Positions 25,315-39,058 of a stretch of DNA of 64,000 nucleotides are shown piece after piece (the first letter of the stretch is position 1; every line of letters starts with the position of its first letter). A program made the position numbers and the translations under genes. The notes beneath the pieces are model-generated. The model made no database searches. It was not told the origin of the DNA and saw only the letters and a list, made by a program, of their open reading frames with translations. Where the stretch lies: positions 2,695,847-2,759,846 of the forward strand of contig OY730442.1 in assembly GCA_963422685.1 (NCBI GenBank), given 5' to 3'. The stretch is from Arenicellales bacterium. GTDB taxonomy: Bacteria; Pseudomonadota; Gammaproteobacteria; Arenicellales; Poriferihabitantaceae.

Positions 25315-25331
25315 CAGGCATTGAATAACAA

Positions 25332-25961
25332 ATGGCATCGAAAACAAATCAAAAAGCACCGGCGGATGGTCAGAACTTCACCGACCGCGATACAGTGCAT
25401 TTTGAAACGCTCATGAATTCGTTTGATGTCAATACCGGTGTGCATGCTGAACGCCAGGATGAAAACAAGGAATCACCACGAATGGCTGTCCCGGACGAAT
25501 TTCCGTATACCGGGAGCGATATCCTTGAGTTTCAAAAGTTGATGGCTTCCAGTAACGCACCGGGGAATATGCGCAATACCGGTCCACTGTCTAGTGGTAA
25601 AGTTTCAAATAACACCAGTTATACCGAGGATGACAACCATTTTTTCGATGCGTTAGGGTCATTCGACTGGAGAGCGGGCCCAAACGCCGGGACAACGAGC
25701 TCCGCCAATCCGCCAAAACGGCAGGCGCCAACACCCGACACCGTCAAGTATTCCCGGCAAGACCTGGAAATATTTGCCAGGTTAATGCCCGGCGCGGCAG
25801 GCAGCAGGGAGTACGCCACCAGTAAGCCCGATGCGGCGCCGATACATATTGATAGAGACGTTGGCCATATCAGAATTGTTGATTATGACAAGCAGCGGCT
25901 GGCCGATTCGAAGCGCAAAAATCGTCCGCATATCGACATGAAAATTCATTATTTCGACTAA
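25332..25961 (+). CDS. Low-complexity repeat protein with the shared C-terminal tail (candidate scaffold)
   Basis: 209 aa with no recognisable enzymatic domain. It has four in-register [FY][TS]xxDxxxFxxL[MG] motifs and ends in the same tail as its neighbours. In-frame conservation of the tail argues that it is a real CDS despite a weak RBS. Confidence 0.7.
   Translation: MASKTNQKAPADGQNFTDRDTVHFETLMNSFDVNTGVHAERQDENKESPRMAVPDEFPYTGSDILEFQKLMASSNAPGNMRNTGPLSSGKVSNNTSYTEDDNHFFDALGSFDWRAGPNAGTTSSANPPKRQAPTPDTVKYSRQDLEIFARLMPGAAGSREYATSKPDAAPIHIDRDVGHIRIVDYDKQRLADSKRKNRPHIDMKIHYFD
25377..25787 (+). repeat. Four protein-level short-motif repeats inside ORF 25332..25961
   Basis: FTDRDTVHFETLM (25377..25415), YTGSDILEFQKLM (25506..25544), YTEDDNHFFDALG (25620..25658) and YSRQDLEIFARLM (25749..25787). 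Spacing is 43, 38 and 43 aa. Confidence 0.8.
25842..25958 (+). other. Shared C-terminal tail, copy 2 (on the repeat protein)
   Basis: IHIDRDVGHIRIVDYDKQRLADSKRKNRPHIDMKIHYFD*. Confidence 0.8.
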
Positions 25962-25966
25962 CTCCC

Positions 25967-28063
25967 ATGCAGAAATCAACCCTGGGCACACAATACCGAC
26001 TAGGCATTGATGCGGGAGGCACCTTTACCGACTTTGTGCTTGCCGACCAGATGGCTGGCACGGTTAACATTTACAAAGCGTTGTCCACACCCGGCAATCC
26101 GACCGAAGCGATCCGGGACGGGTTGCAACTTATCTCGGAAGATTTGGGTGTCACAGCAAAAGATGTCATTTCACAATGCGATTTATGTATCAACGGCACC
26201 ACAGTTGGGCTCAACGCATTAATTCAGCACAAAGGGGCAAAGGTCGGCCTGATTACCACCGCAGGCCATGAGGATTCCATCGAAATACGGCTGGGTCACA
26301 AAGAGGACGGCTATCGATACGACCCTGAGTATCCCCCGGCGGTGATGTTGGTGCCGCGATACTTGCGGTGCGGTGTGCGCGAACGGGTTGTTTCCAACGG
26401 CAGGATCAAAACCGGGATGCAGGAGGAGGACGTCCGCGACGCTTGCCGAATGTTTCAGGAGGAGGGCGTTGAGGCGGTGGCGATTTCATTCATCTGGTCT
26501 GTGCTGAACCCGGCCCATGAAATCCGCGCGGCAGAAATCGTGCGTGAAATGCTGCCGGATGTGATCCTCACCGTGGGTAGCGAGCTCTACCCGCAAATAC
26601 GCGAATACACGCGAACCTCCACTGCCATCACCAATGCTTATCTTGCGCCGATTATTAAAACCTATGTCAATTCAATAGACAACTATTTCAATGAGCTCGG
26701 CGCGATCAATCCGGTTCGTTATTTTCAGTCCAACGGCGGCCTGGCCATTGGCCAGGCAATGACCGACCGGTCCGTATACGCAATCAATTCCGGGCCGGCC
26801 TCTGCCCCTCAGGCGGCCCTTGCGATATGTGCGCCTTTTGGTCACCGGAATGCCATCACCGTAGACATGGGTGGAACATCGTTTGATATTACCCTGGCCC
26901 GGGACGGTGTTACCAACCTCAACAAGAATATCGATTTTCTGCGTTACCGCATCGGCGTGCCGATGATTCAGGTAGAAACCCTGGGGGCAGGCGGCGGTTC
27001 AATCGGTTGGATCGATGAAATGGGGTTGTTACAAATGGGGCCGCAAAGCGCGGGATCAGATCCCGGTCCGGCCTGCTATGACCGCGGCGGCACCGAGCCC
27101 ACGGTGTCAGATGCAAACCTGGTTCTGGGTTATTTGAATCCGGCTGGTCTGGTCGGCGGCCGTCTGCCATTGAACTACGACAAATCCTGTCAGGTGATTG
27201 AAGAAAAAATTGCCCGTCCATTGAATATTTCAGTGGAAAAGGCCGCTTACGGTATGTTTACCATCGTCAATAACAACATGGTCAATGGCATTCGCCGGGT
27301 TTCCGTGGAGCGTGGATATGATCCGCGGGATTTCGTGCTGGTTGCGGCGGGCGGCGCCACCGGCGCGCATATAACCGCATTGGCAACGGAAATGGGTATC
27401 GATACTGTGATCGCGTCCAAACTGAGTTCTGGCCTTTGTGCATACGGACAGATTATTGCGGACGTCAAGTATAATTATATGGCGACCATTCCAGTGCGAC
27501 TGGAAGGCAATGAGACCTATGTCCGCATTAATGCGCTGTATGATGATATAGAAACCAGAGGCATCGATCATTTAAAGTCCGACGGTTTTGCCGAATCGGA
27601 CATCGATATCAAACGCAGCATGGAAATGCGTTATGTCGGGCAGATTCACGAATGTACCGTAGACATCGAATCCTTCGAGATCAACGCGCAGACAATTGAG
27701 CAGATTAAAAATGCGTTTCATGATCGCCACGAACAGTTATTCACCTATTCCGAGCGGCATAACCCGGTCGAACTGGTGAATATCGAAAGCACGCTCTATG
27801 GGCGGGTGGCGCGACCCAATCCGGCGGAACTTGACAGCGGCCCGGCAGTGGAGAATGCGCTAAGCGGACAGCGTGATTTGATTTTTTCCGATGATGCCAG
27901 ACCCGTCCGCGTGCCGGTTTATGACGGCGCAAAAATTGGCGCCGGCAGTCAGCTTACCGGCCCTGCGGTGGTTGAAGAAGAAACCGCGACCTACGTTATT
28001 CAGCCGGACTGGCAAATTGCGCTGCACAAAAGCGCATCATACGTGATTACCCGGGTGCGTTAA
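25967..28063 (+). CDS. Hydantoinase A / oxoprolinase family, ATP-binding subunit (HyuA-like)
   Basis: 698 aa: YRLGIDAGGTFTDFVL (ASKHA-fold phosphate-1), ...TVDMGGTSFDI..., ...LGAGGGSIGW... Typical of the Hydant_A_N and Hydantoinase_A domains. Confidence 0.88.
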   Translation: MQKSTLGTQYRLGIDAGGTFTDFVLADQMAGTVNIYKALSTPGNPTEAIRDGLQLISEDLGVTAKDVISQCDLCINGTTVGLNALIQHKGAKVGLITTAGHEDSIEIRLGHKEDGYRYDPEYPPAVMLVPRYLRCGVRERVVSNGRIKTGMQEEDVRDACRMFQEEGVEAVAISFIWSVLNPAHEIRAAEIVREMLPDVILTVGSELYPQIREYTRTSTAITNAYLAPIIKTYVNSIDNYFNELGAINPVRYFQSNGGLAIGQAMTDRSVYAINSGPASAPQAALAICAPFGHRNAITVDMGGTSFDITLARDGVTNLNKNIDFLRYRIGVPMIQVETLGAGGGSIGWIDEMGLLQMGPQSAGSDPGPACYDRGGTEPTVSDANLVLGYLNPAGLVGGRLPLNYDKSCQVIEEKIARPLNISVEKAAYGMFTIVNNNMVNGIRRVSVERGYDPRDFVLVAAGGATGAHITALATEMGIDTVIASKLSSGLCAYGQIIADVKYNYMATIPVRLEGNETYVRINALYDDIETRGIDHLKSDGFAESDIDIKRSMEMRYVGQIHECTVDIESFEINAQTIEQIKNAFHDRHEQLFTYSERHNPVELVNIESTLYGRVARPNPAELDSGPAVENALSGQRDLIFSDDARPVRVPVYDGAKIGAGSQLTGPAVVEEETATYVIQPDWQIALHKSASYVITRVR

Positions 28064-28065
28064 CC

Positions 28066-30090
28066 ATGCCGGAAGTCGATCCAATCACACTATCCGTGGT
28101 TCGCGGGATTCTGGAAACCACCCAGCGGGAAATGACCCTGGCGCTTGAAAAAACCGGGCGATCCAGCGTATTTAACCTGGCCCATGACTATTCCACGGCC
28201 ATGTTCAACGCCACTCCTGAAATGATCATGCAGGGCCAGGACATACCCATTCACCTGGGTTCGTTGATGCCTGCGATGAAAGCGGTGGCCGGTTATTTTG
28301 GCGACGACCTTCATCCAGGTGATTTGCTGCTGCACAACGACCCGGAATACAAGGGCAGCCATATTCTCGATATGTGCATGTACAAGCCGGTTTTTTATAA
28401 AGGCGAACACATATTCTGGACGGTATGTAAAGGACACCTGACCGATATTGGCGGGCCGGTACCGGCCGGTTACAACCCGGATGCCAGAGAGATTTACGCC
28501 GAAGGGCTGCGTGTGCCCCCCATCAAACTATGGGACAAGGGTAAGCCCCGGGAAGACATACTGAATATGCTGCTGACCAATATGCGGGCGCGGCGCGACC
28601 AGGAGGGCGATTTCAATGCCCTGATTGGCGCTTGTCAGGTTGGCGAACGCAATCTGCTTAATATGCTGGATAAATACGGTATTGAGCAAGTCCGGCTGTG
28701 CATTGATGAATTGCTGTCCATGGCGGACCGTCACATGCGCTCACTGATCAGGCAGGTGCCCGACGGCAGTTTCTCGGGCACCGCGATTCTGGAAGATGCC
28801 GGCCATGGTTTCGGCGACATAGAAATCACCGCGAATCTGACCATTACCGGCGACACCTGCCGGATTGATATCACCAGTCCACCCCAGGTGCCCTATTTCA
28901 TCAACTCCTATGAAGGCAATTCCTATTCCGGTGTGTATCTGGGAGTGATGATGTTTGCCCAGCTTCCGCCGCCATATAATGAAGGTCTGTACCGGTGCGT
29001 CACCGTAAACATGGGGGAAAAGGGGACATTGTGCAATGCGGCCGAACCGGCGCCCCACGTTAATTGTACAACTACCCCGATGGAAACCCTGACCGATGCA
29101 GTGCGTCTGGCCTTTGAGCAGGCCGCGCCAGACAAAGTGAGTGCATCATGGGGGCATACCAATGGCTGCAACATTGCCGGATGGGATTCACGAACCAATG
29201 AAGAATATGTCACTATGGTGCTGGCAACACTTATTTCTGGTGCCGGGGCGACTCCGCAACAGGACGGCTGGCATGCCTGTGGGCCGCAGTCCTGTTTCGG
29301 CGCGCTGACTTCGGGTGATGTTGAATTGCTTGAGCATTCTTATCCGATCATTATTCATCGTTACAATCTGATGACCGATTCCGGCGGTGCGGGAAAATTT
29401 CGCGGAGGGTCGGGAACCTGTTGGGAGGTTGAGCCGATGGATGAACCGATGACCTTCGTGATGTTTGGCGAAGGCCGTCGTTTACCGGCAATGGGTGCGG
29501 CGAACGCGCGCTCAACCATGATCGAGCCCAAAGTCGGTCGGGTCGAATTTACCCGGAACGGTAATGTCGAAATCGTTCGCAAAAACGTCATTGCCACCAT
29601 TCAGCCAGGCGAAACCGCAACCAATAAAAATCCGGGCGGCGGCGGCTATGGCGACCCGTTTGACAGGCCCATCGACAAAGTCATCCAGGATGTAAAAAAC
29701 CGGCTGGTTTCAATCGAAGGCGCTCGGGAAGATTATGGGGTTGTGATCAAGAATGCCGAAACCCTTGAGGCGGATAACCCGGCCACCACCGCGCTGCGCA
29801 GCAATCAATTGCGTCACAAAATGACTGCGCCTGCTGCCATTTCTGGCGCTGACCAGGCCGTTAAATTAGCTCCCGCACCGGTTTCATCGGTGAATATTGA
29901 TCGCCCTGGCGCGGGCGATGTGGCAACAAACCGCAAACCCGGTGACAGGGAGTCGTACAAACAGGGGGGCAACGCCGCTCCAAAACCGTTGACTGGCGCG
30001 GACGTGGGCTTTATTCGAATTGTTGATTTTGATAAACAGGAATCATCCGGCAGGAAAAATAAAAAGAATATGAAAATCCGCTATTTCTGA
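28066..30090 (+). CDS. Hydantoinase B / oxoprolinase family subunit (HyuB-like) with an approximately 88-aa C-terminal linker plus conserved tail
   Basis: DPITLSVVRGILETTQREM..., ...SGGAGKFRGGSG..., ...GGGGYGDPFDRP...REDYGVV is a complete Hydantoinase_B domain. It is followed by a Pro/Ala/Gly-rich linker and LTGADVGFIRIVDFDKQESSGRKNKKNMKIRYF. Confidence 0.88.
   Translation: MPEVDPITLSVVRGILETTQREMTLALEKTGRSSVFNLAHDYSTAMFNATPEMIMQGQDIPIHLGSLMPAMKAVAGYFGDDLHPGDLLLHNDPEYKGSHILDMCMYKPVFYKGEHIFWTVCKGHLTDIGGPVPAGYNPDAREIYAEGLRVPPIKLWDKGKPREDILNMLLTNMRARRDQEGDFNALIGACQVGERNLLNMLDKYGIEQVRLCIDELLSMADRHMRSLIRQVPDGSFSGTAILEDAGHGFGDIEITANLTITGDTCRIDITSPPQVPYFINSYEGNSYSGVYLGVMMFAQLPPPYNEGLYRCVTVNMGEKGTLCNAAEPAPHVNCTTTPMETLTDAVRLAFEQAAPDKVSASWGHTNGCNIAGWDSRTNEEYVTMVLATLISGAGATPQQDGWHACGPQSCFGALTSGDVELLEHSYPIIIHRYNLMTDSGGAGKFRGGSGTCWEVEPMDEPMTFVMFGEGRRLPAMGAANARSTMIEPKVGRVEFTRNGNVEIVRKNVIATIQPGETATNKNPGGGGYGDPFDRPIDKVIQDVKNRLVSIEGAREDYGVVIKNAETLEADNPATTALRSNQLRHKMTAPAAISGADQAVKLAPAPVSSVNIDRPGAGDVATNRKPGDRESYKQGGNAAPKPLTGADVGFIRIVDFDKQESSGRKNKKNMKIRYF
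29989..30087 (+). other. Shared C-terminal tail, copy 3 (on hydantoinase B)
   Basis: LTGADVGFIRIVDFDKQESSGRKNKKNMKIRYF*. Confidence 0.8.
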
Positions 30091-30099
30091 TTTGCAGAC

Positions 30100-32364
30100 A
30101 TGAGTGCGACCAATAGCCATCAATCAGCCACGGCGATCAGTATGACGGGTTCCAAAGAATCCGGCTCTGGCGCCAATACGTATCTAATGGTGCCGATGTT
30201 TATCTTTTTCGCATTACTGATTTTTGCTGTGATTCGAGGCCCTAACCTGATCTCTGGTTCGGGTATTGGCAGCGCAGTGATCGTGGTGGCGCCATTAATA
30301 CTGGCGACCTACGCTTTGACCATCATTGTTATGGCGGGCCGAGCGGGAGTGGATCTTTCAATCGGTCCGCTCATTGGCTTTATCAATGTGGGCATGATTC
30401 AGTTGTTTGCGGTCGGATTCATGGAATCGCCCATCGCCTTTTTCCTGTATGCCATGGGTGTGGGTATCGCCTATCAGGTATTACAGGGGTTGATTATTAT
30501 TTTTGTACGGGTACAGCCGATAATCGTTTCGTTGAGCGGCTATCTTACCCTAGTGGGTCTGAACCTCATTATCATGCCCCGGCCCGGCGGTGTGGCGCCG
30601 GACTGGATGTTCCCCTGGGGCAGTGGCACCACGATTTTTTCAGCGATGCTGGTAATACTGGTACTGGCCACCATCGCCTGGTACATCATCGCCCGATCGG
30701 CATTTTTCGGCCACTTGCGCTTGATGGGTTCGGATGAACGCGCAGCCTATACCAGCGGTGTGCGCATTAATCTGGTGCGTCTGGGGGCGCATGCAATCGG
30801 CGGTGTCTATGCCGGACTTGCGGCGATTGCGTTTACTTCCCTGATCAGTTCCGGTGACCCGACCCAGGGCACGACCTATACCCTGATGGCCGTAACCGCG
30901 CTGGTGCTGGGTGGTGCCAACCTCGCTGGCGGGCGCGGCAGCGCGTTTGGCTCCTTGCTGGGCGCGTTGAATATCTATTTGATCACTTATGTCCTGTCAA
31001 CCTTCAACTTCGGCATGGTGCAGAGCTTTGTCACCGATATGGCCTATGGAGTAATGCTGGTTGTCTCATTATTGATCAGCGTGGTCGTGCCGCACATGCA
31101 AAAGCATATACGCAACCTGTCACCCTTTATGTTCTTTGTGATACTGCTAACCATTACGCTTGGTGTGATTATTCATACCGCTATGGACCAGGTCATGCAA
31201 CCACTGGCCGGGGCATCGTCTTCATCCTTTGTCATACTGGCCGATGGTGGTGTCGCACAGGCAAGCGGCGCAGCGGCCGGGGCGTCCTATTCTCCGGGAA
31301 CCTATATTCTTTTTATCATCATCGGCATCGTTGCTGTGGCCTACGCATTGCGCGTGTTATTCAAATATCCTAAAACACCGATGATCGCTTTTATGGCCGT
31401 CATGGCCATCGCCGCGCTCGGTTTGATTTTCAATCCCGACTCCCCGGTCGAACCCAATGCAGCGACGATGGAGCAGACGGCGCCCAGTGAACTGGATGCG
31501 TATACGCCGACGTTCTTCGCTATGGAAACCGTGGATGCAGTTACCAATACGCGGGATGCCGCCAATCTGGTTGTTCATACCACCTACGCCATGCTCACCA
31601 TGATCGGCGTAGTATTACTGGCTTCATTGATCATTCTCGTTATGCTGCCCCAGGTCAGGGTTCGCATCAAGCGCATGGCCCTGGTTCTGTTTGCCGCAGC
31701 AGTCGCGGTGATTGCGGTGGGGGCGTTATTCTTTGAGGACTTCGAAAAGGGTTATTTGGCCAGCAATCTTTCCGGGGAAATATATGCGGTGATTTTAGTG
31801 GGCGTCGGTTTGTTCACGCTGACGGCGCCTTTGGTGCACAACAGGCTCAGTAATATTTCCAGTATATTTATCGTGCTGATCGGTGTGCTGGCGATAATTT
31901 CCGTATACTTTTTTACTGAACCTGCCGGCAATATGGATGACATCAGCGCCTCCGGCTCAGCAAGCGCTTCGCCTGTATTCGCATCGGCCGCAGAGTCGGC
32001 GCACCCTCCTGTGGCCGAATATGCCGGCCCGGTGCGAGTAAATGTGGATGCTCCCGGGATGGCGGTGCACACACAATTAGCATATTGCGCATTCATTATC
32101 GTGCTGCTGCATATATTTCTGAGCATCGCCATGGGTGAAAACAGCTTTCGCAGCTTCTGGCGCATCTGGTATATCCCCGTTCTGGCCGCATTGGTGTGGG
32201 GTGGTTTGTTTTATGCTATTGGGGTTGCGCTGTGGCAGATTGTCGCGGTGGCCGCTGTGGCCATACTTTCCGCCCCCAACGTTATGCATATTATCAGCAC
32301 CTACAGAAGCAAACAGGGCCGCGATATTTCGCTCAGCCGGATGGGCCATCATGACAGAGCCTAG
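30100..32364 (+). CDS. CUT2-type ABC permease (BPD_transp_2) fused to an approximately 415-aa extra polytopic C-terminal region
   Basis: Residues 30-335 resemble RbsC/AraH-type permeases (...MAGRAGVDLSIGPLIGF..., ...LGGANLAGGRGSAFGSLLGAL...). Residues 340-754 (nt 31117..32364) add many hydrophobic segments and Ala/Ser/Gly-rich loops with no family I recognise. Confidence 0.8.
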   Translation: MSATNSHQSATAISMTGSKESGSGANTYLMVPMFIFFALLIFAVIRGPNLISGSGIGSAVIVVAPLILATYALTIIVMAGRAGVDLSIGPLIGFINVGMIQLFAVGFMESPIAFFLYAMGVGIAYQVLQGLIIIFVRVQPIIVSLSGYLTLVGLNLIIMPRPGGVAPDWMFPWGSGTTIFSAMLVILVLATIAWYIIARSAFFGHLRLMGSDERAAYTSGVRINLVRLGAHAIGGVYAGLAAIAFTSLISSGDPTQGTTYTLMAVTALVLGGANLAGGRGSAFGSLLGALNIYLITYVLSTFNFGMVQSFVTDMAYGVMLVVSLLISVVVPHMQKHIRNLSPFMFFVILLTITLGVIIHTAMDQVMQPLAGASSSSFVILADGGVAQASGAAAGASYSPGTYILFIIIGIVAVAYALRVLFKYPKTPMIAFMAVMAIAALGLIFNPDSPVEPNAATMEQTAPSELDAYTPTFFAMETVDAVTNTRDAANLVVHTTYAMLTMIGVVLLASLIILVMLPQVRVRIKRMALVLFAAAVAVIAVGALFFEDFEKGYLASNLSGEIYAVILVGVGLFTLTAPLVHNRLSNISSIFIVLIGVLAIISVYFFTEPAGNMDDISASGSASASPVFASAAESAHPPVAEYAGPVRVNVDAPGMAVHTQLAYCAFIIVLLHIFLSIAMGENSFRSFWRIWYIPVLAALVWGGLFYAIGVALWQIVAVAAVAILSAPNVMHIISTYRSKQGRDISLSRMGHHDRA

Positions 32365-32376
32365 GCAAAAAATTAA

Positions 32377-33786
32377 ATGAAAAGAGCGACCTATTCATTT
32401 TACAAGTGGCTTGGTTGCATAATCGCCGCAATGGTTGCCGGGGTCAGCGCGATTCTAGGCTGGATAGATGGGGCACCCATGCAGCACATCGTGTTTTACG
32501 CTATGGCCATCTTCGCATTAATTCTTTGGGGATGGCATCACTGCTCGGTACGCTGGATATATCGATCAGACGAAATTGCGGTCAGCACCACGCAACACCA
32601 GCCGGATGCGGCCACCGGCCAGGCCGATGAAGAATATCAGCCAAGCTTTGTGCGTACACTGATTGCCGGAAACAAGAGCGGCGCATGGGGTTTGTTGGCG
32701 CTGGTTATCGCATTCATTGCCAGCGCATTCGTCGTGGATGATTTTTTTCAATGGCGCAATATCATCTCGGTACTGGTATTTATTGCCTTTATTATTATGG
32801 CCTTTATTCTCAATAAACGAATCAAGACCAACAAAAGCGCATTCATCGGCATCGTTGTATTGATCGGGCTGTTCGTGATTGGATCGCTGGTAGTTGAAGG
32901 TTTTCTGTCCATCCTGAACATCAAATCCATGCTGGTGTTTGCCTCGTTTCTGGGTTTGGCCTGTATCGGACAAACCCTGGTTGCGTTGCTGGGCGGGCTG
33001 GATTTGTCCATACCTTTTGTCATCGGTTCATCCAATATTGGCCTGATGTATTTGCTCACCCTGGGCACGCCGCCATGGATCGCATTTATCGCAATCCTGC
33101 TGGTCGGCGCGGGGATTGGTTTTATAAACGGCATGTTGAGTTTTCGTTTGCAGGGCCAGGCGCTGATCCTGACCTTGGGAGTCGGTTTTGCGGTTTCCGG
33201 CGGCACCCAGATTCTCACCAGCATCGGCACTGCATTCGGCGGTAATGTATTCGGAGTGGTGCCCAAATGGTTGTCTAATATCGCTGCCATGAATGGCGTG
33301 TTTTTCGGATTAGAGTTTCCGCCAGTGGTTATTATCTGGGTTCTCGCCGCAATTATCCTGATTATCGGATTGCGCAATACCATCTGGGGAAGGCATCTGT
33401 ACGCCCTTGGCGGCAGTCGTATTTCAGCAAAGCGTCTGTCCATATCGGAACGCGGTTACTGGGTCGGTATGTACAGCATCAGCGGCTGTGTATCGGCGTT
33501 CACTGGTGCCCTGCTGCTGGGATGGAGCGGCGGCGGATTTATCGGCGTAGGCGATCAATATCTATTCATGACCCTGGCGGCCGTAGTGGTGGGCGGCACT
33601 TCCCTGCTGGGCGGCTGGGGCGGTTATGGCTTCACCGTGATTGGTGTACTGGTTTTGCAAGTGCTGACATCATTTCTGGTCGGTATAGGGCTGGATTATG
33701 AAAGTCAGCAATTCGTATTCGGGTTGCTCATTCTACCCATGGTGGCATTGTATGCGCGCTCGCCGCATATACGCACACAGATCTAG
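32377..33786 (+). CDS. CUT2-type ABC permease with an approximately 150-aa extra N-terminal membrane region
   Basis: The C-terminal 320 aa are BPD_transp_2-like (...LLGGLDLSIPFVIG..., ...VVGGTSLLGGWGGYGFTVIG...). The N-terminal 150 aa (nt 32377..32826) hold about 4 hydrophobic segments and an acidic loop not seen in the control permease 44378..45421. Confidence 0.8.
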   Translation: MKRATYSFYKWLGCIIAAMVAGVSAILGWIDGAPMQHIVFYAMAIFALILWGWHHCSVRWIYRSDEIAVSTTQHQPDAATGQADEEYQPSFVRTLIAGNKSGAWGLLALVIAFIASAFVVDDFFQWRNIISVLVFIAFIIMAFILNKRIKTNKSAFIGIVVLIGLFVIGSLVVEGFLSILNIKSMLVFASFLGLACIGQTLVALLGGLDLSIPFVIGSSNIGLMYLLTLGTPPWIAFIAILLVGAGIGFINGMLSFRLQGQALILTLGVGFAVSGGTQILTSIGTAFGGNVFGVVPKWLSNIAAMNGVFFGLEFPPVVIIWVLAAIILIIGLRNTIWGRHLYALGGSRISAKRLSISERGYWVGMYSISGCVSAFTGALLLGWSGGGFIGVGDQYLFMTLAAVVVGGTSLLGGWGGYGFTVIGVLVLQVLTSFLVGIGLDYESQQFVFGLLILPMVALYARSPHIRTQI

Positions 33787-33876: not shown

Positions 33877-34284
33877 TCAACGGTATTCTGCCAGTAAATC
33901 GGCGATGCGCTTTAAAAATATTGCATGTTCGCTCGCTTCTTCAGAAGAAAAGGATTCCTTGAGGATTTTCACGGGTTGTCCGCGTACTCCCGGGCAGATG
34001 CCGATACGGTAGTCTTCATGCCGGCGTTTGCATACGGTTATGTACTTGCCTGCCATCGGTTGACGACGGAATTTATCCAGTACCGTGATTAAATCCTTAC
34101 TGTGTTCAATCGGCGGTCTGCCGTTTCCCGGAGGCCCGGCCACAGGATTCGCTTTATGTTCAGCGATCAGCCGGTTACGGGTTGCCGCGTCAGTCAGCAG
34201 GGGCAATACATGGGTCCGGGTGATGTAGTCGTCGGTGCTGGTGCGCCCCTGGTCAGTTTGCACGCCGGTTGGTTTATTTAGCAT
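33877..34284 (-). CDS. N,N-dimethylformamidase small (alpha) subunit-like protein
   Basis: 135 aa. ...AEHKANPVAG...LDKFRRQPMAGKYITVCKRRHEDYRIGICPG...FSSEEASEHAIFLKRIADL follows the pattern I recall for the DMFase small subunit (...F.MQP.FG.YYI...W..YRI...F.TEEEAMHAVFLRRI.D). It lies downstream of the large-subunit homologue. Confidence 0.55.
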   Translation of the reverse strand: MLNKPTGVQTDQGRTSTDDYITRTHVLPLLTDAATRNRLIAEHKANPVAGPPGNGRPPIEHSKDLITVLDKFRRQPMAGKYITVCKRRHEDYRIGICPGVRGQPVKILKESFSSEEASEHAIFLKRIADLLAEYR

Positions 34285-34323
34285 TGTTTCGCCTCATTTG
34301 TTCAAATATCTGCGCGGATCGGT

Positions 34324-34692
34324 TCAAGTACATCGACACGGCGCTGATTCGCCGCGCACTTGTTTGATGCGGCGCGCTTCACGCTGCGCCAGTTCCGGTG
34401 TGGGAAAGCGCTTGTCTGCAAATAATATGATTGGCTTTATCCGGTCCGCATTGAGTTGGCCCACACACCATTCTTTATCCGGTTTGGTGCATACCACCAT
34501 GTAGGCGCCTGGAATGGGGCCATAGCGCCGATTGTTCAGTACAAACAGGCATTCAGCCAAATTGTTAAGTTTATCCACGTCCAGTTGACTCAATGCGGCC
34601 ATTTCCAGCTCATTGGGCGACACCAATGCCGCTCCCATCACTTCTTTACCCTGGGGTCGTTGCATCATCGGCGGTGATTGATTGTCTGGCAT
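34324..34692 (-). CDS. Divergent paralogue of the DMFase small-subunit-like protein
   Basis: 122 aa. GAYMVVCTKPDKEWCVGQLNADRIKPIILFADKRFPTPELAQREARRIKQV aligns with GKYITVCKRRHEDYRIGICPGVRGQPVKILKESFSSEEASEHAIFLKRI of the neighbour. Confidence 0.5.
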   Translation of the reverse strand: MPDNQSPPMMQRPQGKEVMGAALVSPNELEMAALSQLDVDKLNNLAECLFVLNNRRYGPIPGAYMVVCTKPDKEWCVGQLNADRIKPIILFADKRFPTPELAQREARRIKQVRGESAPCRCT

Positions 34693-34731
34693 ATTTACTA
34701 TCGCCTGATCATTATAATTGCGGCTGGGTGA

Positions 34732-37089
34732 CTAGGGCAGGGGGCCGTCTTTGAGAAACCCTTTGATGGTATTTTCGAGAATACGGGAGACGTTATTGTT
34801 GTAGTTGTTATGGGAAAGACTGCCGCACCAGGAAAGTGAACCGGGTGCGAACAGCGCACCGTCGTTCGGAGTTTTATAATAAATCATGTCAGCGCGAACC
34901 TGTGGGTTTTCAGTGCCGCCGCCATAATAACCGCGGACGGAGAAATGTATCTCCTCGTTCACTTGCAGCATGAGATTGGTGTGGCCTTCGGAACGCGCCA
35001 GCAAATAGGCATTGTGCGGCGTACCGAATTCCAGATCATAACGATCAAGTTCAAGGCCTGCGGCGCCGCCGCCGACCAGACCAAAGTCTCCGATTATTTC
35101 ATCTTCGCCGACACCTTCGAAAATCCAGGCGCATTCTGGTCTCTTGCTGTCCGCTTCACGGCGGTAATACGAGGACACATCAAAGCCGTAAGCGGTAAAC
35201 GTCAATCCGCATACCTTGCTTGGTATGCGCCCGCGTGCCCGCCACATTCCACCGAACTTTCCATCAAAGGCATTATTATATTCGCCTGGATTTGCCGTCC
35301 ATGCCCGAGTGCCTGCCTCACCTTTGCGCACTTCGATAATATTGTCATTGTCCGGGTGGTATTCGCTGACCCAGTAAAATCCGTCCGCACCCAGATATAT
35401 CCAGCGTCCGCCTCCGAGTTGATAGGACTCGTAGGCGGCATACATTTTTTCCGACGTGTATTCAGGATGGCTGCCGGTCAACACCGTTCTATACCGATTA
35501 AGCATTCCCACCCCTTCGCGATGCAGATCTTCATCGGTATGCACATCAAAATCGAAGCCTGTTTGTTCCAGCCAGTCGGTGAGATGCAAATCGCCGTTAA
35601 GCTGCCATAACGATGGCGACAGCCAGTGACGATACTTGGGTCGCATATTCAATATCGGGCGCAGGCGCGATGAGTAGCATACGCCACTGCCGTCTGAGTG
35701 CAGCGAGTAGGTAGACAAGCCGTATTCCCTATGTTCATTCAAATACAGGTCTGAAGGGGACAACACCGGGACTTTGCCCGCCAGCAATTGCGCGACCACC
35801 GAATTGGTGCCCAGGTTGTCGTTGGAATACGCCATGTAACTGTTGGTCGGTAAAATCAACGCCAGTCTGGATGTGGTCGTGCCTTGGGGCGGGCGAACAA
35901 CAAACGGAATAAAATCTTCGGTATCAGCAGAATCATCGCCGCCGATACGTAACCGGGCGGCATAAACCCCGCTTTTCAAACCTTCCGGCACGGTAAATTC
36001 AAAATCCATGTCCCAGCGAGCATCGTCGATATCGTCGTCATGGAAATGAATCGCGCCGTATTCATCGGGCCGGTGATGGTAGACAATCTCATCCCCGGTC
36101 CAGTTGAAACCGGTCATCGCTCTGGCCGGCAGGTTGATCGCATGACCATTGAGTATGTTCGGCGAGGTGTCGATAATATAAGTGGATGCGATGTTTGTAG
36201 TGATATTGGCGTGGAAATCCCACGCGCCGACAACATCATTCCGCAGCTCCGCCGCACAGCCCTCAAAGCCCCGTGCCAGCGCCTCAATCTCGGATTTGGA
36301 CAGCGCTCGACGGCAGAGTCTGGGGCGGTCGATTTTGCCGTTATAGACATGGGTTTGCTCCGGCAGCTCGACGGGCTGAGTCGCTTCCCTGTAATGTGCG
36401 CCGAAAATTGCTCTACCCGATCTTTCCTGCAAAGTTGAGGCGGCCATCAGCAAAGGCGCATCATTTATGCCGGGGAGCATACTGTTAGTTGCTTCCACCA
36501 CAGCAGTGGTTTCATCTCCGGGATGCAACAGCGACATACCCAGGCCGCCATTGGTAGCGGTGACCACGGGTTCCTGATACAACGTGACTCGACCACTTTG
36601 TTCATCAAAAGTCGCCGCTGCCAAATACCAGACTTTGCGCATCAGTTTCTTGTCGCTGGACAGGTTCATTACCAGTCCCCTACCGTCGCCAATCTCCAGG
36701 CTCAGGCAACCGCTATGGTCTATAAATAATCCATACCCGCATTTATTCTGCTCTGTCCATTTGGTGAGAATACCCTGCCTGCCCTTATCCGGTGTGGTTG
36801 GAAAAATGTAGGCTTGCAGGGTAAAACTCTGGACATTCAGGCGCTCGTCCTGAGGAATGATGATATAGGAACCGCCGTGAATTCTCTGGTTTCTGCCCGC
36901 ATAGGTTGTGTTGCAGGACGCGGTGATTTCCTCTTCCTTGTAGCCCGGTCCTTGCGGGTTGGTGTCGCCGTGGATTAAACGAACAATATGCGCATCATAG
37001 GATTCCTGCTCCTCGGAATTCACATAGAACTTGATGTTATCTCCAGGACAAACAGAATACTTGTCACTGTATCCGGTAATTCGTAACAT
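34732..37089 (-). CDS. N,N-dimethylformamidase large (beta) subunit family amidohydrolase
   Basis: Blocks match my recollection of DMFase: MLRITGY...VRLIHGDTNPQGPGYKEEE, DARWDMDFEFTVPEGLKSGVYAA, GLSTYSLHSDGSGVCYSSRLRPILNMRPKYR, VLTGSHPEY, GLVGGGAAGLELDRYDLEFGTP and NNVSRILENTIKGFLKD. The start was set at the ATG at 37089, because the ORF-track start overlaps the upstream SSS gene. Confidence 0.8.
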   Translation of the reverse strand: MLRITGYSDKYSVCPGDNIKFYVNSEEQESYDAHIVRLIHGDTNPQGPGYKEEEITASCNTTYAGRNQRIHGGSYIIIPQDERLNVQSFTLQAYIFPTTPDKGRQGILTKWTEQNKCGYGLFIDHSGCLSLEIGDGRGLVMNLSSDKKLMRKVWYLAAATFDEQSGRVTLYQEPVVTATNGGLGMSLLHPGDETTAVVEATNSMLPGINDAPLLMAASTLQERSGRAIFGAHYREATQPVELPEQTHVYNGKIDRPRLCRRALSKSEIEALARGFEGCAAELRNDVVGAWDFHANITTNIASTYIIDTSPNILNGHAINLPARAMTGFNWTGDEIVYHHRPDEYGAIHFHDDDIDDARWDMDFEFTVPEGLKSGVYAARLRIGGDDSADTEDFIPFVVRPPQGTTTSRLALILPTNSYMAYSNDNLGTNSVVAQLLAGKVPVLSPSDLYLNEHREYGLSTYSLHSDGSGVCYSSRLRPILNMRPKYRHWLSPSLWQLNGDLHLTDWLEQTGFDFDVHTDEDLHREGVGMLNRYRTVLTGSHPEYTSEKMYAAYESYQLGGGRWIYLGADGFYWVSEYHPDNDNIIEVRKGEAGTRAWTANPGEYNNAFDGKFGGMWRARGRIPSKVCGLTFTAYGFDVSSYYRREADSKRPECAWIFEGVGEDEIIGDFGLVGGGAAGLELDRYDLEFGTPHNAYLLARSEGHTNLMLQVNEEIHFSVRGYYGGGTENPQVRADMIYYKTPNDGALFAPGSLSWCGSLSHNNYNNNVSRILENTIKGFLKDGPLP

Positions 37090-37117
37090 GGTTTTTTCCC
37101 CGAATAATCGCCTTGAA

Positions 37118-39058
37118 TTAATATTTTGAGCCACTGGCAACTCTTTCGATTTCCCGTTCTGGAACAGTGGACATCTCCATTTTGCAGGCCAGATACCAAA
37201 TCATGCCTACGCCCAGCGCCCACCAGATAATCTGCCATGCCCAGATCGATGGCATACCCAGATTCCAGGCCGGATATCCTGCATCGGGCTCACCGAAAAG
37301 TACATTGCCAAGCACCGCACCGGGACCGATCGCAAAAAACATCCACACCAGTACGATGACTGCGGCGACGGATTTTGACCAGCGTCTGTGTCTCGTCAAT
37401 GAACCGTATTCTTTAAGAAAATCGTGCACCTGGCTGCGTCGCGGCCGGTGCACATCGTTGCGCCCCATAGCCGAAACGATGAGGCAGACCAGGATATTCA
37501 AAAACATACCCCATGCGGCAGAATGTATGGTCCAGGGCCAACGCCCCCAGGGCAGCGAATCCGCTGCGAGCTTCTGCCCCAGAGGTTCGGTCATGACCAC
37601 AGCAATCAGACCGGCAATCAAACCCAGGGTGGCAGCCTGTCGCGTGATCCAGGGAAACCATGTCACAGCAAGCAGCGACGGCCACAGTTGAAACCCAAAG
37701 GCAATGGCAAGACTGCCAAGCAGTATGGTAGCTTCCATTGAATAGGTGGCGATCAGCATGGCGGCCAGAAATACCAGCCCGGTACACAGCCGACCCACCC
37801 GCTTTTGTTTTTCATGATTCGCGTCAGGCTGGATATAGCGTTTATAAATATCCCGGGTCAAAATACTGCCAGTGGCGGCCATAAATGCACCGGCCGTTGC
37901 CTGTAACGCCGCAATGGCACAGACTGCAAACACCCCTATTAGCCAGGGCTGTTTGTCACCGATCAGTTTTATGTAGTGCACTGCCAGGGAGTTTCTTTCA
38001 TGGCCAGCCAGTACGGGTAGTATCTGCGCGGTGGCGATGTCGGCTTCATTGACTTGGGCATTGGCGCCCAGCAAATGTGCGCTAACACCCATCAAGGTGG
38101 AAAATACAAGCATGATGATCCCGGCGCAAAACGCGGCCCCCCAAACTTGATGGATGACGAATCCGCGTGGCGACTGGCTTGCAAAGCCCCACATGGAAAT
38201 AGCGGGCGAAGCCTGAATTCCCATTATCGACATCATAAAAGTCAGGCACATGATGGCTGTCCAGGGGCCGCCAGAAGGCGATTCGACACCGATTCCGGCG
38301 GTCCATTGAATTACCCCCGGGATGGCAAAGTATCCCGGGAAATTTCCACCGCCTGAACCATTCGTATTGCCCCACAAGCCCGGCAAGTTCTGTGCGATGC
38401 GTGCCAGACCTCTGTTCAGAGAGTCGAATCCCCCGGCCGTTTCCAGGGCAAATGTGCCGAGTACAACCACGCCAAAGGCAAACAATACGCACTGTACCAC
38501 AGCGATTTTCGCCACAGCCTGCATACCCCCAGTGGTACAGTACAGCAATACGAAGCCCGATAATACCCACATGGCAGCGTCACGGGATATGGTTTGATCG
38601 GTCAACTCACCGATCAAAAACCCGGATGCACCGAATAGCATGGCGGCAAATGGCACACCGAACAACAGCGCGATACCGACGGATACGATACGCAGCGCAT
38701 TGCCGCCAAAATAGTCTGCAAACATTTCGCCGCACGTCATATATCCAAATCGTCGCCCCAGCATCCACTGGCGTTTGAGGAGTACCACACCCGCTAACGC
38801 CACGGCTATGCCGTAAAAGGATGTATTAACGAATTGAAAGCCATCACGAAATACTAAACCGGGGTGCCCCATAAACGCCCAGCCTGCCAAGGTCACCGCA
38901 GTGATGGCAAGAGAAAATACCCAGGGCGAAAGCTGTCGGCCGGCAAGAAAAAAATCGCTGGCGGTGTGTGCCCGACGCAGCGCACGGATACCCCAGAAGA
39001 AACAATATGCCCAGTAAAGCAGCAAAAACAGCAGCAGCCAGATGGTGCTGTGGGTCAT
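37118..39058 (-). CDS. Sodium:solute symporter (SSS) family transporter
   Basis: 646 aa, about 13-14 hydrophobic segments, with an SSF-type N-terminus (LLLYWAYCFFWGIRALRRAHTASDFFLAGRQLSPW). It ends 28 nt before the amidase start. Confidence 0.8.
   Translation of the reverse strand: MTHSTIWLLLFLLLYWAYCFFWGIRALRRAHTASDFFLAGRQLSPWVFSLAITAVTLAGWAFMGHPGLVFRDGFQFVNTSFYGIAVALAGVVLLKRQWMLGRRFGYMTCGEMFADYFGGNALRIVSVGIALLFGVPFAAMLFGASGFLIGELTDQTISRDAAMWVLSGFVLLYCTTGGMQAVAKIAVVQCVLFAFGVVVLGTFALETAGGFDSLNRGLARIAQNLPGLWGNTNGSGGGNFPGYFAIPGVIQWTAGIGVESPSGGPWTAIMCLTFMMSIMGIQASPAISMWGFASQSPRGFVIHQVWGAAFCAGIIMLVFSTLMGVSAHLLGANAQVNEADIATAQILPVLAGHERNSLAVHYIKLIGDKQPWLIGVFAVCAIAALQATAGAFMAATGSILTRDIYKRYIQPDANHEKQKRVGRLCTGLVFLAAMLIATYSMEATILLGSLAIAFGFQLWPSLLAVTWFPWITRQAATLGLIAGLIAVVMTEPLGQKLAADSLPWGRWPWTIHSAAWGMFLNILVCLIVSAMGRNDVHRPRRSQVHDFLKEYGSLTRHRRWSKSVAAVIVLVWMFFAIGPGAVLGNVLFGEPDAGYPAWNLGMPSIWAWQIIWWALGVGMIWYLACKMEMSTVPEREIERVASGSKY

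Follow-up and report, generated by a model that had tools for sequence, protein, structure and literature searches.

Extended CUT2-Type Permeases in a Flotillin-Associated Rhodopsin Gene Cluster

Introduction

The stretch of DNA analyzed here (64,000 nucleotides, hereafter the window) encodes an ABC system whose two adjacent permeases, P1 and P2, carry large membrane regions beyond the CUT2 core. What are these regions, and what might they do? A sequence-only reading had suggested that they could form one additional membrane module, plausibly a receptor for the C-terminal tails shared by the neighboring proteins, or a second substrate-handling domain.

The window at ~22–51 kb is a flotillin-associated rhodopsin (FAR) gene cluster of the kind described by Haro-Moreno et al. 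2023, mSystems (PMC10308929). Table S2 of that study gives the two permeases 774 and 466 aa in SAR11 and 714 and 477 aa in Pseudothioglobus, in both cases with 20 and 14 TM, respectively, and flags both permeases as co-occurring in all three taxa. The words "ABC" and "permease" are absent from the main text, which does not analyze the extensions, tails, or motifs, and neither does a 2025 structure preprint. The 20 and 14 helices are thus already on record but were never discussed there.

Gene Context

The genes around the permeases are as follows.

22244..30090, + strand: upstream operon genes as a block (Pfam, NCBIfam, tails/motifs)
22244-23446, +: SBP (Peripla_BP_4; Pfam/NCBIfam)
23482-25314, +: tandem-NBD ATPase with disordered tail, 610 aa (Pfam/NCBIfam)
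25332-25961, +: 209-aa motif protein (motifs)
25967-28063, +: caprolactamase-like CapA (Pfam/NCBIfam)
28066-30090, +: CapB with tail (Pfam/NCBIfam)
33877..44159, - strand: rest of the FAR cluster as a block (Pfam, tblastn, blastp)
within 33877..44159, -: 135-aa and 122-aa proteins, orthologues of SAR11-cds06 and cds08 (tblastn/blastp)
34732-37140, -: DMFase-like protein (Pfam)
37118-39058, -: SSF symporter (Pfam)
39122-39883, -: Lactamase_B protein (Pfam)
39939-40793, -: alpha/beta hydrolase (Pfam)
40846-41235, -: SCP2-like protein, 129 aa (Pfam/tblastn)
41354-43399, -: flotillin (Pfam)
43461-44159, -: FArhodopsin (Pfam)
44378..51209, - (response regulator +): second CUT2 system and regulators as a block (Pfam)
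44378-45421, -: permease of this system, 347 aa (BPD_transp_2 at aa 57-329)
45418-47034, -: its ATPase (Pfam)
47035-48264, -: TorT-like binding protein (Pfam)
48428-49120, +: LuxR-type response regulator (Pfam)
49143-51209, -: hybrid histidine kinase (Pfam)

The genes at 33877..44159 are 61–82% identical to those of the published SAR11 cluster (blastp), and this set of genes also surrounds the extended permeases of Martelella, Hoeflea, and unrelated metagenomic lineages. The second CUT2 system had been taken as an ordinary control. Its permease does have 347 aa and neither addition, but it is not an unrelated control, being 67% identical to Pseudothioglobus-cds05. The gene set of the system matches cds05–cds09 of the published Pseudothioglobus FAR cluster, and on these sequence grounds the system itself belongs to the gammaproteobacterial FAR cluster.

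Permease 1

The layout of P1 is the following.

30100..32364, +: P1, ORF of 754 aa, CUT2 core plus 10-helix C-terminal extension
30100..31104, +: core, aa 1-335, 10 TM, BPD_transp_2 (Pfam, NCBIfam)
31117..31185, +: TM11, aa 340-362, first extra helix, common to all family members including those with a short extension
31186..31293, +: loop 1, aa 363-398, variable, Ala/Ser/Gly-rich, predicted periplasmic (loop counts, pLDDT < 50)
31294..32295, +: TM12-TM20, aa 399-732, orphan membrane domain (hydropathy, AlphaFold2 model)
31438..31569, +: loop 2, aa 447-490, acidic, variable, predicted periplasmic, with near-invariant E476 (loop counts)
31918..32064, +: loop 3, aa 607-655, Ala/Ser/Pro-rich, variable, predicted periplasmic, with the conserved end P644-x-R646-V-N (loop counts)
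32296..32364, +: conserved cytoplasmic C-terminal segment (..APNVMHIISTY..Q.RD..IS.W), K+R-rich (alignment)

The CUT2 match of this 754-aa protein is confined to aa ~27–335, as had been proposed: the NCBIfam ribose/YjfF/AraH permease models align only there, and PF02653 (BPD_transp_2) covers only aa 66–322, with 55.5 bits against a cutoff of 26.8. The hydropathy scan and the AlphaFold2 (AF2) secondary structure agree on a total of 20 helices, ten in the CUT2 core and ten further ones at aa 340–732, bearing out the many hydrophobic segments claimed for the C-terminal addition, while the single-chain AF2 model itself is of low confidence (pLDDT 59, pTM 0.45). A 754-aa protein on a 2.9-Mb contig (P0141) is 100% identical to P1. 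The first 400 aa of SAR11-cds18 (774 aa, 20 TMHMM helices) show 59% identity to P1 (blastp), and a 476-aa Martelella permease shows 64% identity up to aa 363.

Conservation in P1 is graded, with a mean top-residue frequency of 0.87 in the core, 0.62–0.75 in the extra helices, and 0.35–0.42 in the long loops. S341, P342, F346, and D363 are invariant in 70 P1-type sequences, and TM11 is kept in Martelella as well as in P0279, P0283, and P0299. Toward the C-terminus, P726 and H730 are invariant, and N727, I731, I732, T734, Y735, D742, I745, and W748 are found in at least 90% of the sequences. Within the extra helices, conservation falls mostly on G, P, F, L, and W, and on few polar residues.

Loop 1 ranges from 22 to 41 aa across the family (mean top-residue frequency 0.40; D+E 3.7 vs K+R 1.3), loop 2 from 33 to 72 aa (7.3 vs 1.2), and loop 3 from 44 to 110 aa (5.6 vs 2.7). 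E476 in loop 2 is kept in at least 90% of the sequences, and at the end of loop 3 P644 is invariant and R646 near-invariant. Both Ala/Ser/Gly-rich loops quoted in the sequence-only reading are present, at aa 370–400 and 613–637; they are the least conserved stretches of the extension and periplasmic by the positive-inside rule. On this rule, with the helices taken from the AF2 models and K+R compared with D+E for each loop, the three long acidic loops are predicted to face the periplasm. The cytoplasmic side would then consist only of short basic loops and the conserved C-terminal segment, a predicted exposure of four loops of 4–12 residues and a tail of ~22 residues.

Permease 2

P2 starts 12 nt after the stop codon of P1, and the extra regions, at the C-terminus of P1 and the N-terminus of P2, do adjoin each other in gene order.

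32377..33786, +: P2, ORF of 469 aa, 4-helix N-terminal extension plus CUT2 core
32377..32826, +: N-terminal extension, aa 1-150, helices 3-30, 35-61, 100-119, and 126-148 (AF2 secondary structure)
32524..32556, +: LWGWHHxSVRW motif, conserved, at the predicted cytoplasmic end of extension helix 2 (conservation)
32557..32667, +: disordered acidic loop, aa ~61-97, predicted cytoplasmic (pLDDT < 50 at aa 62-90)
32668..32820, +: extension helices 3-4, aa 98-148, tandem duplicate of core aa 151-201 (HHalign)

PF02653 matches aa 182–453 with 79.3 bits (Pfam), and the four N-terminal helices agree with the roughly four extra hydrophobic segments claimed for this 469-aa protein. The similarity to other FAR permeases includes the extension: P2 is 58% identical to SAR11-cds17 (466 aa, 14 TMHMM helices) starting at residue 1, and 59% identical, end to end, to a 457-aa Martelella permease. 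The single-chain AF2 model is of low confidence (pLDDT 67.5), with the first hairpin of the extension at pLDDT 80–85.

The residues G13, G28, F46, W51, W53, W60, and F123 are invariant in 53 P2 sequences, and the WGW of the motif recurs in Martelella (TWGWRF) and SAR11 (LWGWYHFSVRW). The acidic stretch noted before lies at aa 74–90, within a loop whose sequence differs between lineages. Both the conserved WGW..VRW motif and this ~35-residue loop are predicted to be on the cytoplasmic side. Extension helices 3–4 align with the first ~50 core residues over 51 columns (HHalign probability 81%, E 1.2e-5, 35% identity), from which we conclude that half of the extension is a duplication of core helices 1–2.

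Distribution and Origin of the Extensions

Neither extension has a Pfam, NCBIfam, or PDB sequence match, and the fold search with them gave no usable match, so that they are not a common known fusion partner. A profile of the P1 extension run against 1.84 billion representatives gave 87 matches; the complete ones are all P1-type permeases and the others fragments. The one match that looked like a stand-alone protein is in fact cut by a contig end. The P1 extension is thus an orphan domain, found only fused to P1-type permeases among these representatives. It resembles neither the permease core nor the P2 extension, and its two halves do not resemble each other.

Frameshifted or mis-assembled separate genes do not account for the extra regions. 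In almost all of the 27 species-genome loci that have the extension, one continuous reading frame runs through core and extension of P1. Intact ORFs of 714–793 aa are present in 23 of them; L025 has a frameshift within the extension, and L030 is a 934-bp fragment. A fragmented P1 also occurs in L038. At least 115 protein clusters of 714–817 aa cover at least 95% of P1, and the best 120 relatives of P2 are almost all 458–485 aa long (one has 430 aa), with 97–100% coverage. Chromosome-level assemblies, single-cell genomes, and a complete Pseudothioglobus genome are among the sources of the continuous long P1 ORFs. These comparisons support the extra regions as genuine, selected parts of both permeases, and we are highly confident that these accessory domains are real, conserved, and specific to FAR clusters.

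The P1 extension varies from about 3 to 10 helices, i.e., helix 11 followed by 2 to 9 more, with a low-complexity loop of variable length between helix 11 and the rest. The 10-helix form occurs in the window and in marine SAR11, HIMB59, SUP05, and Arenicellales lineages, and the short form in Martelella, Hoeflea, and L034/35; in P0271, P0279, and P0283 the loops are replaced by even longer repetitive Gly/Ser or Ala/Pro linkers. The P2 extension, in contrast, is constant across FAR-type clusters, and the two extensions, which had been read as a possible single module, are separable in evolution. In all FAR-type clusters examined, P1 has helices 11–13 or more, P2 has its extension, and the ATPase tail or a small protein bears a motif. 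The nearest non-FAR relative, on an R. tropici plasmid (permeases of 322 and 337 aa, ATPase of 519 aa), has neither extensions nor ATPase tail. This supports the view that the extra regions and the tails belong to the same system.

Proposed Role and Alternatives

In our best explanation, P1 and P2 are the two membrane subunits of a CUT2-type ABC importer forming a core part of the FAR cluster, and the extensions are accessory transmembrane domains defining a subfamily. As to their function, we infer that they may dock the importer to its partners in the cluster. We give this explanation as a whole, identity and role together, a little less than even chances, and the mechanism that follows is somewhat less likely still. 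The extra helices would transport nothing; they would enlarge the lateral membrane surface of the importer and serve as a docking or assembly platform. Such a platform could keep the importer in a complex or microdomain with the retinal-free FArhodopsin, the flotillin, and the SSF symporter, which are always encoded beside it. The tagged enzymes, the small adaptor, and the motif-bearing tail of the ATPase may gather on its cytoplasmic side. Membrane microdomains built by the cluster were also proposed, independently, by the FAR authors (PMC10308929).

In the extensions the helices and a few interface residues are conserved and the long loops are not. The partner genes stay constant while the P1 extension goes from about 3 to 10 helices, which argues against one fixed docking interface on helices 12–20. 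The gene-neighborhood support is correlative, and the lineages are not independent, since FAR clusters probably spread by transfer.

If the extensions instead docked the short motifs shared by the ATPase tail, the adaptor, and the catabolic enzymes, the enzymes would be tethered directly to the permeases. Motif A reads [IV][KR]I[IV][DE][FY]D; in the window it makes up a C-terminal hairpin that a terminal ..MKI.YF(D) strand closes. Motif B reads Y[ST]..D...F..LM. All clusters with extended permeases have motif-bearing proteins, and the non-FAR relative has neither. Elsewhere the motifs tag other enzymes (a carboxyltransferase in SAR11, the KipI and AttM N-termini in HIMB59), which implies that some common receptor must exist within the cluster. 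The invariant WGW..VRW and the loop of the P2 extension, predicted to be cytoplasmic, and the conserved cytoplasmic end of P1 would suit such a receptor. However, L032, L037, and L039 combine the long P1 extension with motif A only, the SUP05 loci and L029 with motif B only, and the window clade and SAR11 with both motifs, while the short one is accompanied by motif A (Martelella, Hoeflea, L034/35). The long extension is thus not tied to the tag type, and the predicted cytoplasmic exposure of the P1 extension is tiny. Motif A follows the SCP2-like/hydrolase/lactonase module better than the extension: L029 lacks the module at the syntenic position, no such module is listed for Pseudothioglobus, and neither has motif A. 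Several soluble proteins that are candidates as well (flotillin, the NBDs, the SCP2-like, 135-aa, and 122-aa proteins) are equally universal in the cluster. We regard the receptor role suggested for the extensions as unlikely.

A periplasmic function is rather unlikely too. Here the extra helices would mainly serve as anchors for the three long loops, acidic and of low complexity, and for a few periplasmic residues that are conserved. These loops and residues could catch the substrate-binding protein or set its orientation, or they could raise the concentration of a cationic or polar substrate close to the importer entry. The predicted location and acidity of the loops fit this, as does the position of the conserved polar residues of the extension, mostly on the periplasmic side, and the Gly/Ser or Ala/Pro linkers replace the loops with longer ones. 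Yet the loops are the least conserved in sequence and length, ten helices far exceed the needs of an anchor, the P2 extension has almost no periplasmic exposure, and the topology derives from the positive-inside rule only.

The conserved residues at predicted periplasmic positions (D363, E476, G551-Y552-L553, E560, P644, and R646) hint at a periplasmic role and are not explained by the docking model.

An extra pore or binding site formed by P1 helices 11–20, with or without the P2 extension, is quite improbable. Ten helices would suffice in size, conservation in streamlined genomes is strong, and several conserved charged residues lie close to helix ends. However, no transporter family or solved structure is detectably similar to the P1 extension, which also shows no internal-repeat or inverted-repeat signal, and the residues kept in the helix interiors are G, P, F, L, and W, not polar ones. 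Furthermore, orthologous systems with 53–64% identity in core and binding protein have anywhere between 3 and 10 of these helices. The suggested second substrate-handling domain thus finds no support, and a second translocation path in the extensions is unlikely.

That the extensions are an artefact or neutral baggage (a frameshift, mis-assembly, fused neighbor gene, or functionless insertion) is hardly credible and effectively refuted by the comparative data, because, despite the low-complexity, poorly conserved long loops and the occasional broken P1 copy (L025, L038), the ORFs are continuous in more than 100 clusters, invariant residues are spread over the extra helices, and genome-streamlined SAR11 has kept the extensions.

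Comparison with Known Systems

Like CUT2 importers (ribose/arabinose/galactofuranose type, TCDB 3.A.1.2; YtfT/YjfF, LsrC/LsrD), the P1/P2 system has two BPD_transp_2 permeases, whose cores match PF02653 and the NCBIfam RbsC, YjfF, AraH, and LsrC/D models, a tandem-NBD ATPase, and a Peripla_BP_4 binding protein. The differences are the 20 and 14 helices of the permeases compared with about 10 each, the 610-aa ATPase with its disordered motif-bearing tail, and the location among lactam-, lactone-, and amide-hydrolysing enzymes. The NCBIfam scores are far under every equivalog cutoff (e.g., 73 vs 398 bits), so that none of the known sugars is the substrate. The core weakly resembles the membrane domains of type II importers (PsaBC, HI1471, BtuC), with a Foldseek E of about 1e-2 for a medium-confidence model.

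In the maltose transporter, MalF has extra helices and a large periplasmic loop beyond the conserved permease core, which serve partner contacts and not translocation. The idea of lineage-specific extra TM helices and a large periplasmic loop on a conserved core is the same here, with no homology implied: MalF is of the type I (BPD_transp_1) fold, with no more than a few extra helices, whereas P1 combines a type II-like core with a 10-helix orphan domain and P2 has a separate 4-helix extension.

Compared with the FAR cluster of PMC10308929, the window comes from an Arenicellales/Poriferihabitaceae-like gammaproteobacterium, a group not treated there, and has the caprolactamase-like CapAB where SAR11 has PxpA and carboxylase/carboxyltransferase genes. 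The rhodopsin, the SCP2-like, 135-aa, and 122-aa proteins, P1, and P2 are shared by the two clusters, with 58–82% identity to the SAR11 genes.

Permease Architecture and Family Assignment

The two permeases are encoded by the following open reading frames:

30100-32364, + strand: permease 1 (P1), 754 aa, about 20 helices
32377-33786, + strand: permease 2 (P2), 469 aa, about 14 helices

Both proteins score above the gathering cut-off of 26.8 bits for BPD_transp_2 (PF02653), P1 with 55.5 bits and P2 with 79.3 bits, but the Pfam match is confined to aa 66-322 in P1 and to aa 182-453 in P2. The NCBIfam ribose-, arabinose-, and galactofuranose-type permease models likewise extend only over aa ~27-335 and ~150-460, respectively, which agrees with the claim of the sequence-only reading that only part of P1 is CUT2-like. 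The ATPase (23482-25314) contains two ABC_tran stretches and can be aligned over its whole length with the YtfR, XylG, and AraG models, while the binding protein (22244-23446) matches Peripla_BP_4 with 129 bits. By the PF02653 scores and these operon partners, P1 and P2 classify as permeases of a CUT2-type ABC importer. They fall below the cut-offs of the named sugar permease equivalogs (RbsC, AraH, YjfF/YtfT, LsrC/D, and MglC), the top scores being 73 bits for P1 and 81 bits for P2 versus cut-offs of 363-535, and neither has the canonical CUT2 size and topology of about 320-350 aa and about 10 helices.

The oversize of both frames, as well as the membrane character of the extra regions, stands as originally described. 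The hydropathy scan and the AlphaFold2 secondary structure both place ten additional helices at aa 340-732 of P1 and four at the N-terminus of P2 (aa 3-30, 35-61, 100-119, and 126-148), the latter matching the roughly four hydrophobic segments and the acidic loop (aa 74-90) noted before. The other low-complexity loops that had been pointed out are located at aa 370-400 and 613-637 of P1. The neighboring 347-aa permease (44378-45421) is indeed a plain BPD_transp_2 protein with neither addition.

Conservation of the Extensions

The extra regions could in principle be mis-assembled or frameshifted separate genes, a concern raised in the sequence-only reading itself. Of the 27 species-level genome loci with the extension, however, nearly all have the P1 core and extension in one contiguous frame; these loci belong to Arenicellales, Ca. 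Poriferihabitaceae, and Thioglobus/SUP05/Pseudothioglobus, with a complete genome among them. The P1 frame is intact, with 714-793 aa, in 23 of them; the exceptions include a frameshift within the extension (locus L025) and a 934-bp fragment (locus L030). In a full-length search with P1, at least 115 clusters, with proteins of 714-817 aa, cover 95% or more of the query; one of them is a 754-aa protein 100% identical to P1 on a 2.9-Mb contig. Almost all of the best 120 relatives of P2 have 458-485 aa (one has 430 aa), with a coverage of 97-100%. Homologues of the two permeases number more than 2000. The one-frame architecture across loci and clusters thus speaks against an artefact. The only candidate for a stand-alone extension (cluster P0009, 368 aa) was rejected, as this protein ends at a contig end.

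In a 70-sequence alignment, the mean top-residue frequency is 0.62-0.75 in the extra helices of P1 versus 0.87 in the core. The invariant residues of the extension are S341, P342, F346, D363, G400, T401, P517, F544, L571, F572, P577, Y603, P644, M678, F686, W687, G708, P726, and H730. The three long loops reach a frequency of only 0.35-0.42 and differ in length among the sequences (22-41, 33-72, and 44-110 aa). The P2 extension can be aligned over its full length with the orthologues of Martelella and SAR11 and carries an invariant WGW..VRW motif.

Some broken copies were encountered among the related loci: the frameshift of L025 (10031-11175), a split CapA in L011 (4752-6825), and a P1 reduced to a 150-aa C-terminal fragment in L038 (1-3011), from a MAG labeled Rhodobacterales but with SUP05-like sequence. 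These could be either sequencing errors or decay. In locus L006 (JBLHGU010000079.1), from a MAG labeled Parasphingorhabdus (Alphaproteobacteria), the core genes are 86-94% identical to the gammaproteobacterial cluster of the window, reflecting either mis-binning or recent transfer.

Origin of the Extensions

A common fusion partner of trivial role would be a simple explanation of the extra regions. Searches against Pfam, NCBIfam, and the PDB and with Foldseek revealed no known partner domain. Outside the cores, Pfam at E-values up to 10 and NCBIfam, scanned with the full-length permeases, gave only noise, and a PDB profile search with the extensions gave no matches. Foldseek against the PDB gave no meaningful match for P1, the model of which is of low confidence (pLDDT 59, pTM 0.45), and for P2 matched the core only, weakly. 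Searching all 1.84 billion representative proteins with a profile of the P1 extension returned only 87 matches, of which the complete proteins are P1-type permeases and the remainder fragments. At the level of sequence, the search shows the P1 extension to be an orphan domain of ten predicted helices that is found nowhere but on P1-type permeases.

A number of other origins were also considered for this domain. A degenerate second permease domain and a relationship to the P2 extension were both rejected on HHalign probabilities of at most 1%, an internal duplication on a probability of 1% between the two halves, and a fusion of the separate four-helix protein of 136-141 aa found in short-extension clusters on one of 0.5%. 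A fused copy of the neighboring rhodopsin-like gene shows no BLASTP similarity and is further opposed by locus L029 and the window, each of which has both genes.

The P2 extension has in part a recognizable origin. Its helices 3-4 (aa 98-148) align with core residues 151-201 with an HHalign probability of 81%, an E-value of 1.2e-5, and 35% identity, which shows that this segment arose when the opening ~50 residues of the core were duplicated in tandem.

The P1 extension varies within the family. Helix 11 is common to all relatives, including a 476-aa Martelella protein, with which P1 shares 64% identity ending at aa ~363. It is followed in various lineages by a low-complexity linker, sometimes with long Gly/Ser or Ala/Pro repeats, and then by either two helices (proteins of 446-579 aa) or about nine (714-817 aa). 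The long form of the high-GC lineages is divergent yet homologous to the marine form (hmmsearch E-values of 7e-26 for locus L037 and 4e-12 for L039).

Gene Cluster Context

The pattern is seen on plasmids of Martelella and Hoeflea, on which the genes after the extended permeases encode a rhodopsin-like protein, a flotillin, a small membrane protein, and an SSF symporter; this set is also present in unrelated metagenomic lineages. In the window, the following genes are found:

43461-44159, - strand: FArhodopsin (Bac_rhodopsin), 61% identical to SAR11-cds02
41354-43399, - strand: flotillin (Band_7 and Flot)
40846-41235, - strand: SCP2-like protein, 129 aa
39939-40793, - strand: alpha/beta hydrolase
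39122-39883, - strand: lactamase_B protein
37118-39058, - strand: SSF symporter, 646 aa
34732-37140, - strand: DMFase-like protein
34324-34692 and 33877-34284, - strand: two small proteins
44378-51209: second CUT2 system, with a single 347-aa permease, a 538-aa ATPase, a TorT-like binding protein, a hybrid histidine kinase, and a LuxR-type response regulator

By gene content and similarity, this is the flotillin-associated rhodopsin (FAR) gene cluster of Haro-Moreno et al. 2023 (PMC10308929). The rhodopsin and flotillin genes are adjacent on the same strand, 61 nt apart, and the accessory set is present, namely the SCP2-like protein, the hydrolase, the SSF symporter, the DMFase-like protein, the two small proteins, and the ABC system with its 20- and 14-helix permeases. 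The window proteins are 58-82% identical to those of the SAR11 cluster (PMC10308929 Table S2). According to the same table, the orthologous permeases have 20 and 14 TMHMM helices, with 774 and 466 aa in SAR11 and 714 and 477 aa in Pseudothioglobus, and are flagged as co-occurring in all three taxa. ABC transporters and permeases are absent from the main text of that paper, and likewise from a 2025 structural preprint. Taken together, the genomic comparisons show, at the sequence level, that the extensions are conserved, specific to FAR-type transporters, and linked to the other cluster genes. An apparent lack of rhodopsin and flotillin in the SUP05 loci was discounted, as the published Pseudothioglobus cluster has both genes beyond the 10-kb flanks inspected.

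The second CUT2 system, which had served as a control, is orthologous to cds05-cds09 of the published Pseudothioglobus FAR cluster: its permease is 67% identical to cds05, and cds06-cds09 correspond to its binding protein, ATPase, hybrid kinase, and LuxR regulator. The system may serve for sensing rather than for nutrient import.

The FArhodopsin of the window retains the retinal lysine (..NLADFLNK..), which is replaced by Arg in Martelella (locus L002, 11440-12141; ..ADFLNR..) and by Gln in locus L034 (8866-9570; ..ADLVNQ..); both lysine-less orthologues come, in this small sample, from clusters with a short P1 extension. The SSF symporter is long, its orthologues having 15-16 TMHMM helices (PMC10308929 Table S2), and adjoins the ABC genes in every lineage examined, directly after P2 in the SUP05-type loci.

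CapA and CapB of the window (25967-30090) score 1208 and 1103 bits, compared to NCBIfam caprolactamase equivalog cut-offs of 1000. Their role is taken in SAR11 by PxpA and a carboxylase/carboxyltransferase and in Alphaproteobacteria by the AttM lactonase, while the SUP05-type loci have no such enzyme. The enzyme module thus looks interchangeable around a constant transporter.

C-Terminal Tails and Motifs

The window has three C-terminal tails with G.IRIVD[FY]D and, after it, ..MKI.YF(D) in common, and these tails are kept across Arenicellales-type loci. Two patterns can be defined, motif A ([IV][KR]I[IV][DE][FY]D) and motif B (Y[ST]..D...F..LM), which occur in the following segments:

25200-25314, 25332-25961, and 29980-30090 of the window
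8845-9177 of locus L032
7232-7603 of locus L037
7372-7683 of locus L039

The carriers are the ATPase tail, CapB, and small disordered proteins built almost wholly of motif repeats. The 209-aa protein of the window has three copies of motif B by pattern search and a fourth, degenerate one by eye. In the SUP05-type loci and L029, 2-4 copies of motif B are placed in a C-terminal extension of the ATPase. L032 and L037 encode between the ATPase and P1 a small protein of 4-5 copies of motif A (5 in L032), and a similar protein in L039 has two by pattern and more by eye. In SAR11 the full tail is at the C-terminus of the carboxyltransferase, and in HIMB59 motif B is at the N-termini of a KipI-family enzyme and AttM. 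As the carriers vary across lineages, the motifs behave as portable tags of the FAR cluster. For the Martelella AttM lactonase (L002, 4500-5438), an in-frame upstream start gives MKIIEFDEKG.., a copy of motif A, and the annotated start at 4668 may thus be too short.

The motifs are distributed over the P1 forms as follows:

Long P1 extension, motif A only: L032, L037, L039
Long P1 extension, motif B only: SUP05 loci, L029
Long P1 extension, motifs A and B: window clade, SAR11
Short P1 extension, motif A only: Martelella, Hoeflea, L034/35

The long extension, occurring with A only, B only, or both, is thus not tied to the tag type, and a link between motif B and the long extension, which had been considered, is broken by the three loci of the first line. 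A closer correlate of motif A is the SCP2-like/hydrolase/lactonase module (SCP2-like protein at 40846-41235), and this co-occurrence may give a hint of the receptor for motif A. The module is absent between flotillin and SSF in L029 (13400-17600), which has motif B only, and Pseudothioglobus, also with motif B only, is listed without it. The features common to all lineages are limited to the P2 extension, helices 11-13 of P1, and some form of tag. Possible receptors for the tails are the cytoplasmic loop and motif of P2, the C-terminal segment of P1, flotillin, the NBDs, and small soluble proteins.

Predicted Topology

On family average, basic residues outnumber acidic ones in the C-terminal tail of P1 and in its short loops (12-13, 14-15, 16-17, and 18-19), and the reverse holds for the long loops (11-12, 13-14, and 17-18). 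These charges, together with the placement of the core C-terminus in the cytoplasm, lead to the prediction that the Ala/Ser/Gly-rich loops are periplasmic. The cytoplasmic side of the P1 extension would then consist only of loops of 4-12 residues and a conserved ~22-residue tail (..APNVMHIISTY..Q.RD..IS.W). For P2, a cytoplasmic location is predicted for the N-terminus, the WGW..VRW motif, and the disordered acidic loop (aa ~61-97).

Possible Role of the Extensions

The functional ideas attached to the extensions in the sequence-only reading are treated here as hypotheses. The best-supported reading at present sees in the extensions accessory membrane domains without a part in translocation, which would widen the importer laterally so that it can assemble with cluster partners in a flotillin-organized complex or microdomain. 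This fits the membrane-microdomain hypothesis of the FAR authors, made on other grounds (PMC10308929). The varying number of P1 helices argues against a fixed interface, and any physical contact with the partners is putative. The conserved, predicted-periplasmic residues D363, E476, GYL551-553, E560, P644, and R646 point to an additional periplasmic role.

A second translocation pathway, or the second substrate-handling domain proposed earlier, is unlikely because the extensions have no transporter homology and no repeat symmetry, and their conservation is mostly apolar.

A more far-reaching and rather doubtful version of the assembly reading is that the 14 extra helices form an interface that builds the ABC importer into a flotillin-scaffolded "transport metabolon", with FArhodopsin as a structural or regulatory subunit and catabolism recruited by the motifs. 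In such a metabolon, the motifs on the ATPase tail, the adaptor protein, and the interchangeable lactam-, lactone-, or amide-hydrolyzing enzymes would bring catabolism to the site of uptake, and the retinal-free FArhodopsins would acquire a concrete function.

The main value of the finding is the handle it gives on the function of FAR clusters, which are conserved in SAR11, HIMB59, and Pseudothioglobus, marine bacteria that have streamlined genomes and rank among the most abundant. Even if the extensions were structural padding only, they would correct the annotation "ribose transport system permease" and provide a diagnostic signature for FAR-type transporters. For ABC-transporter biology, an accessory membrane domain of this size would be unusual on a type II-like importer.

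The FAR cluster itself and the helix counts of its permeases, the latter in a published supplementary table (PMC10308929), were already known, and no published analysis of the extensions themselves was found in the searchable literature. What is new is a CUT2 importer with about 34 membrane helices rather than 20, bearing an orphan domain of ten predicted helices. With this architecture and its motif-tagged partners, the FAR transporter is no ordinary sugar importer. Its closest non-FAR relative examined, on an R. tropici plasmid, has permeases of 322 and 337 aa and a 519-aa ATPase.
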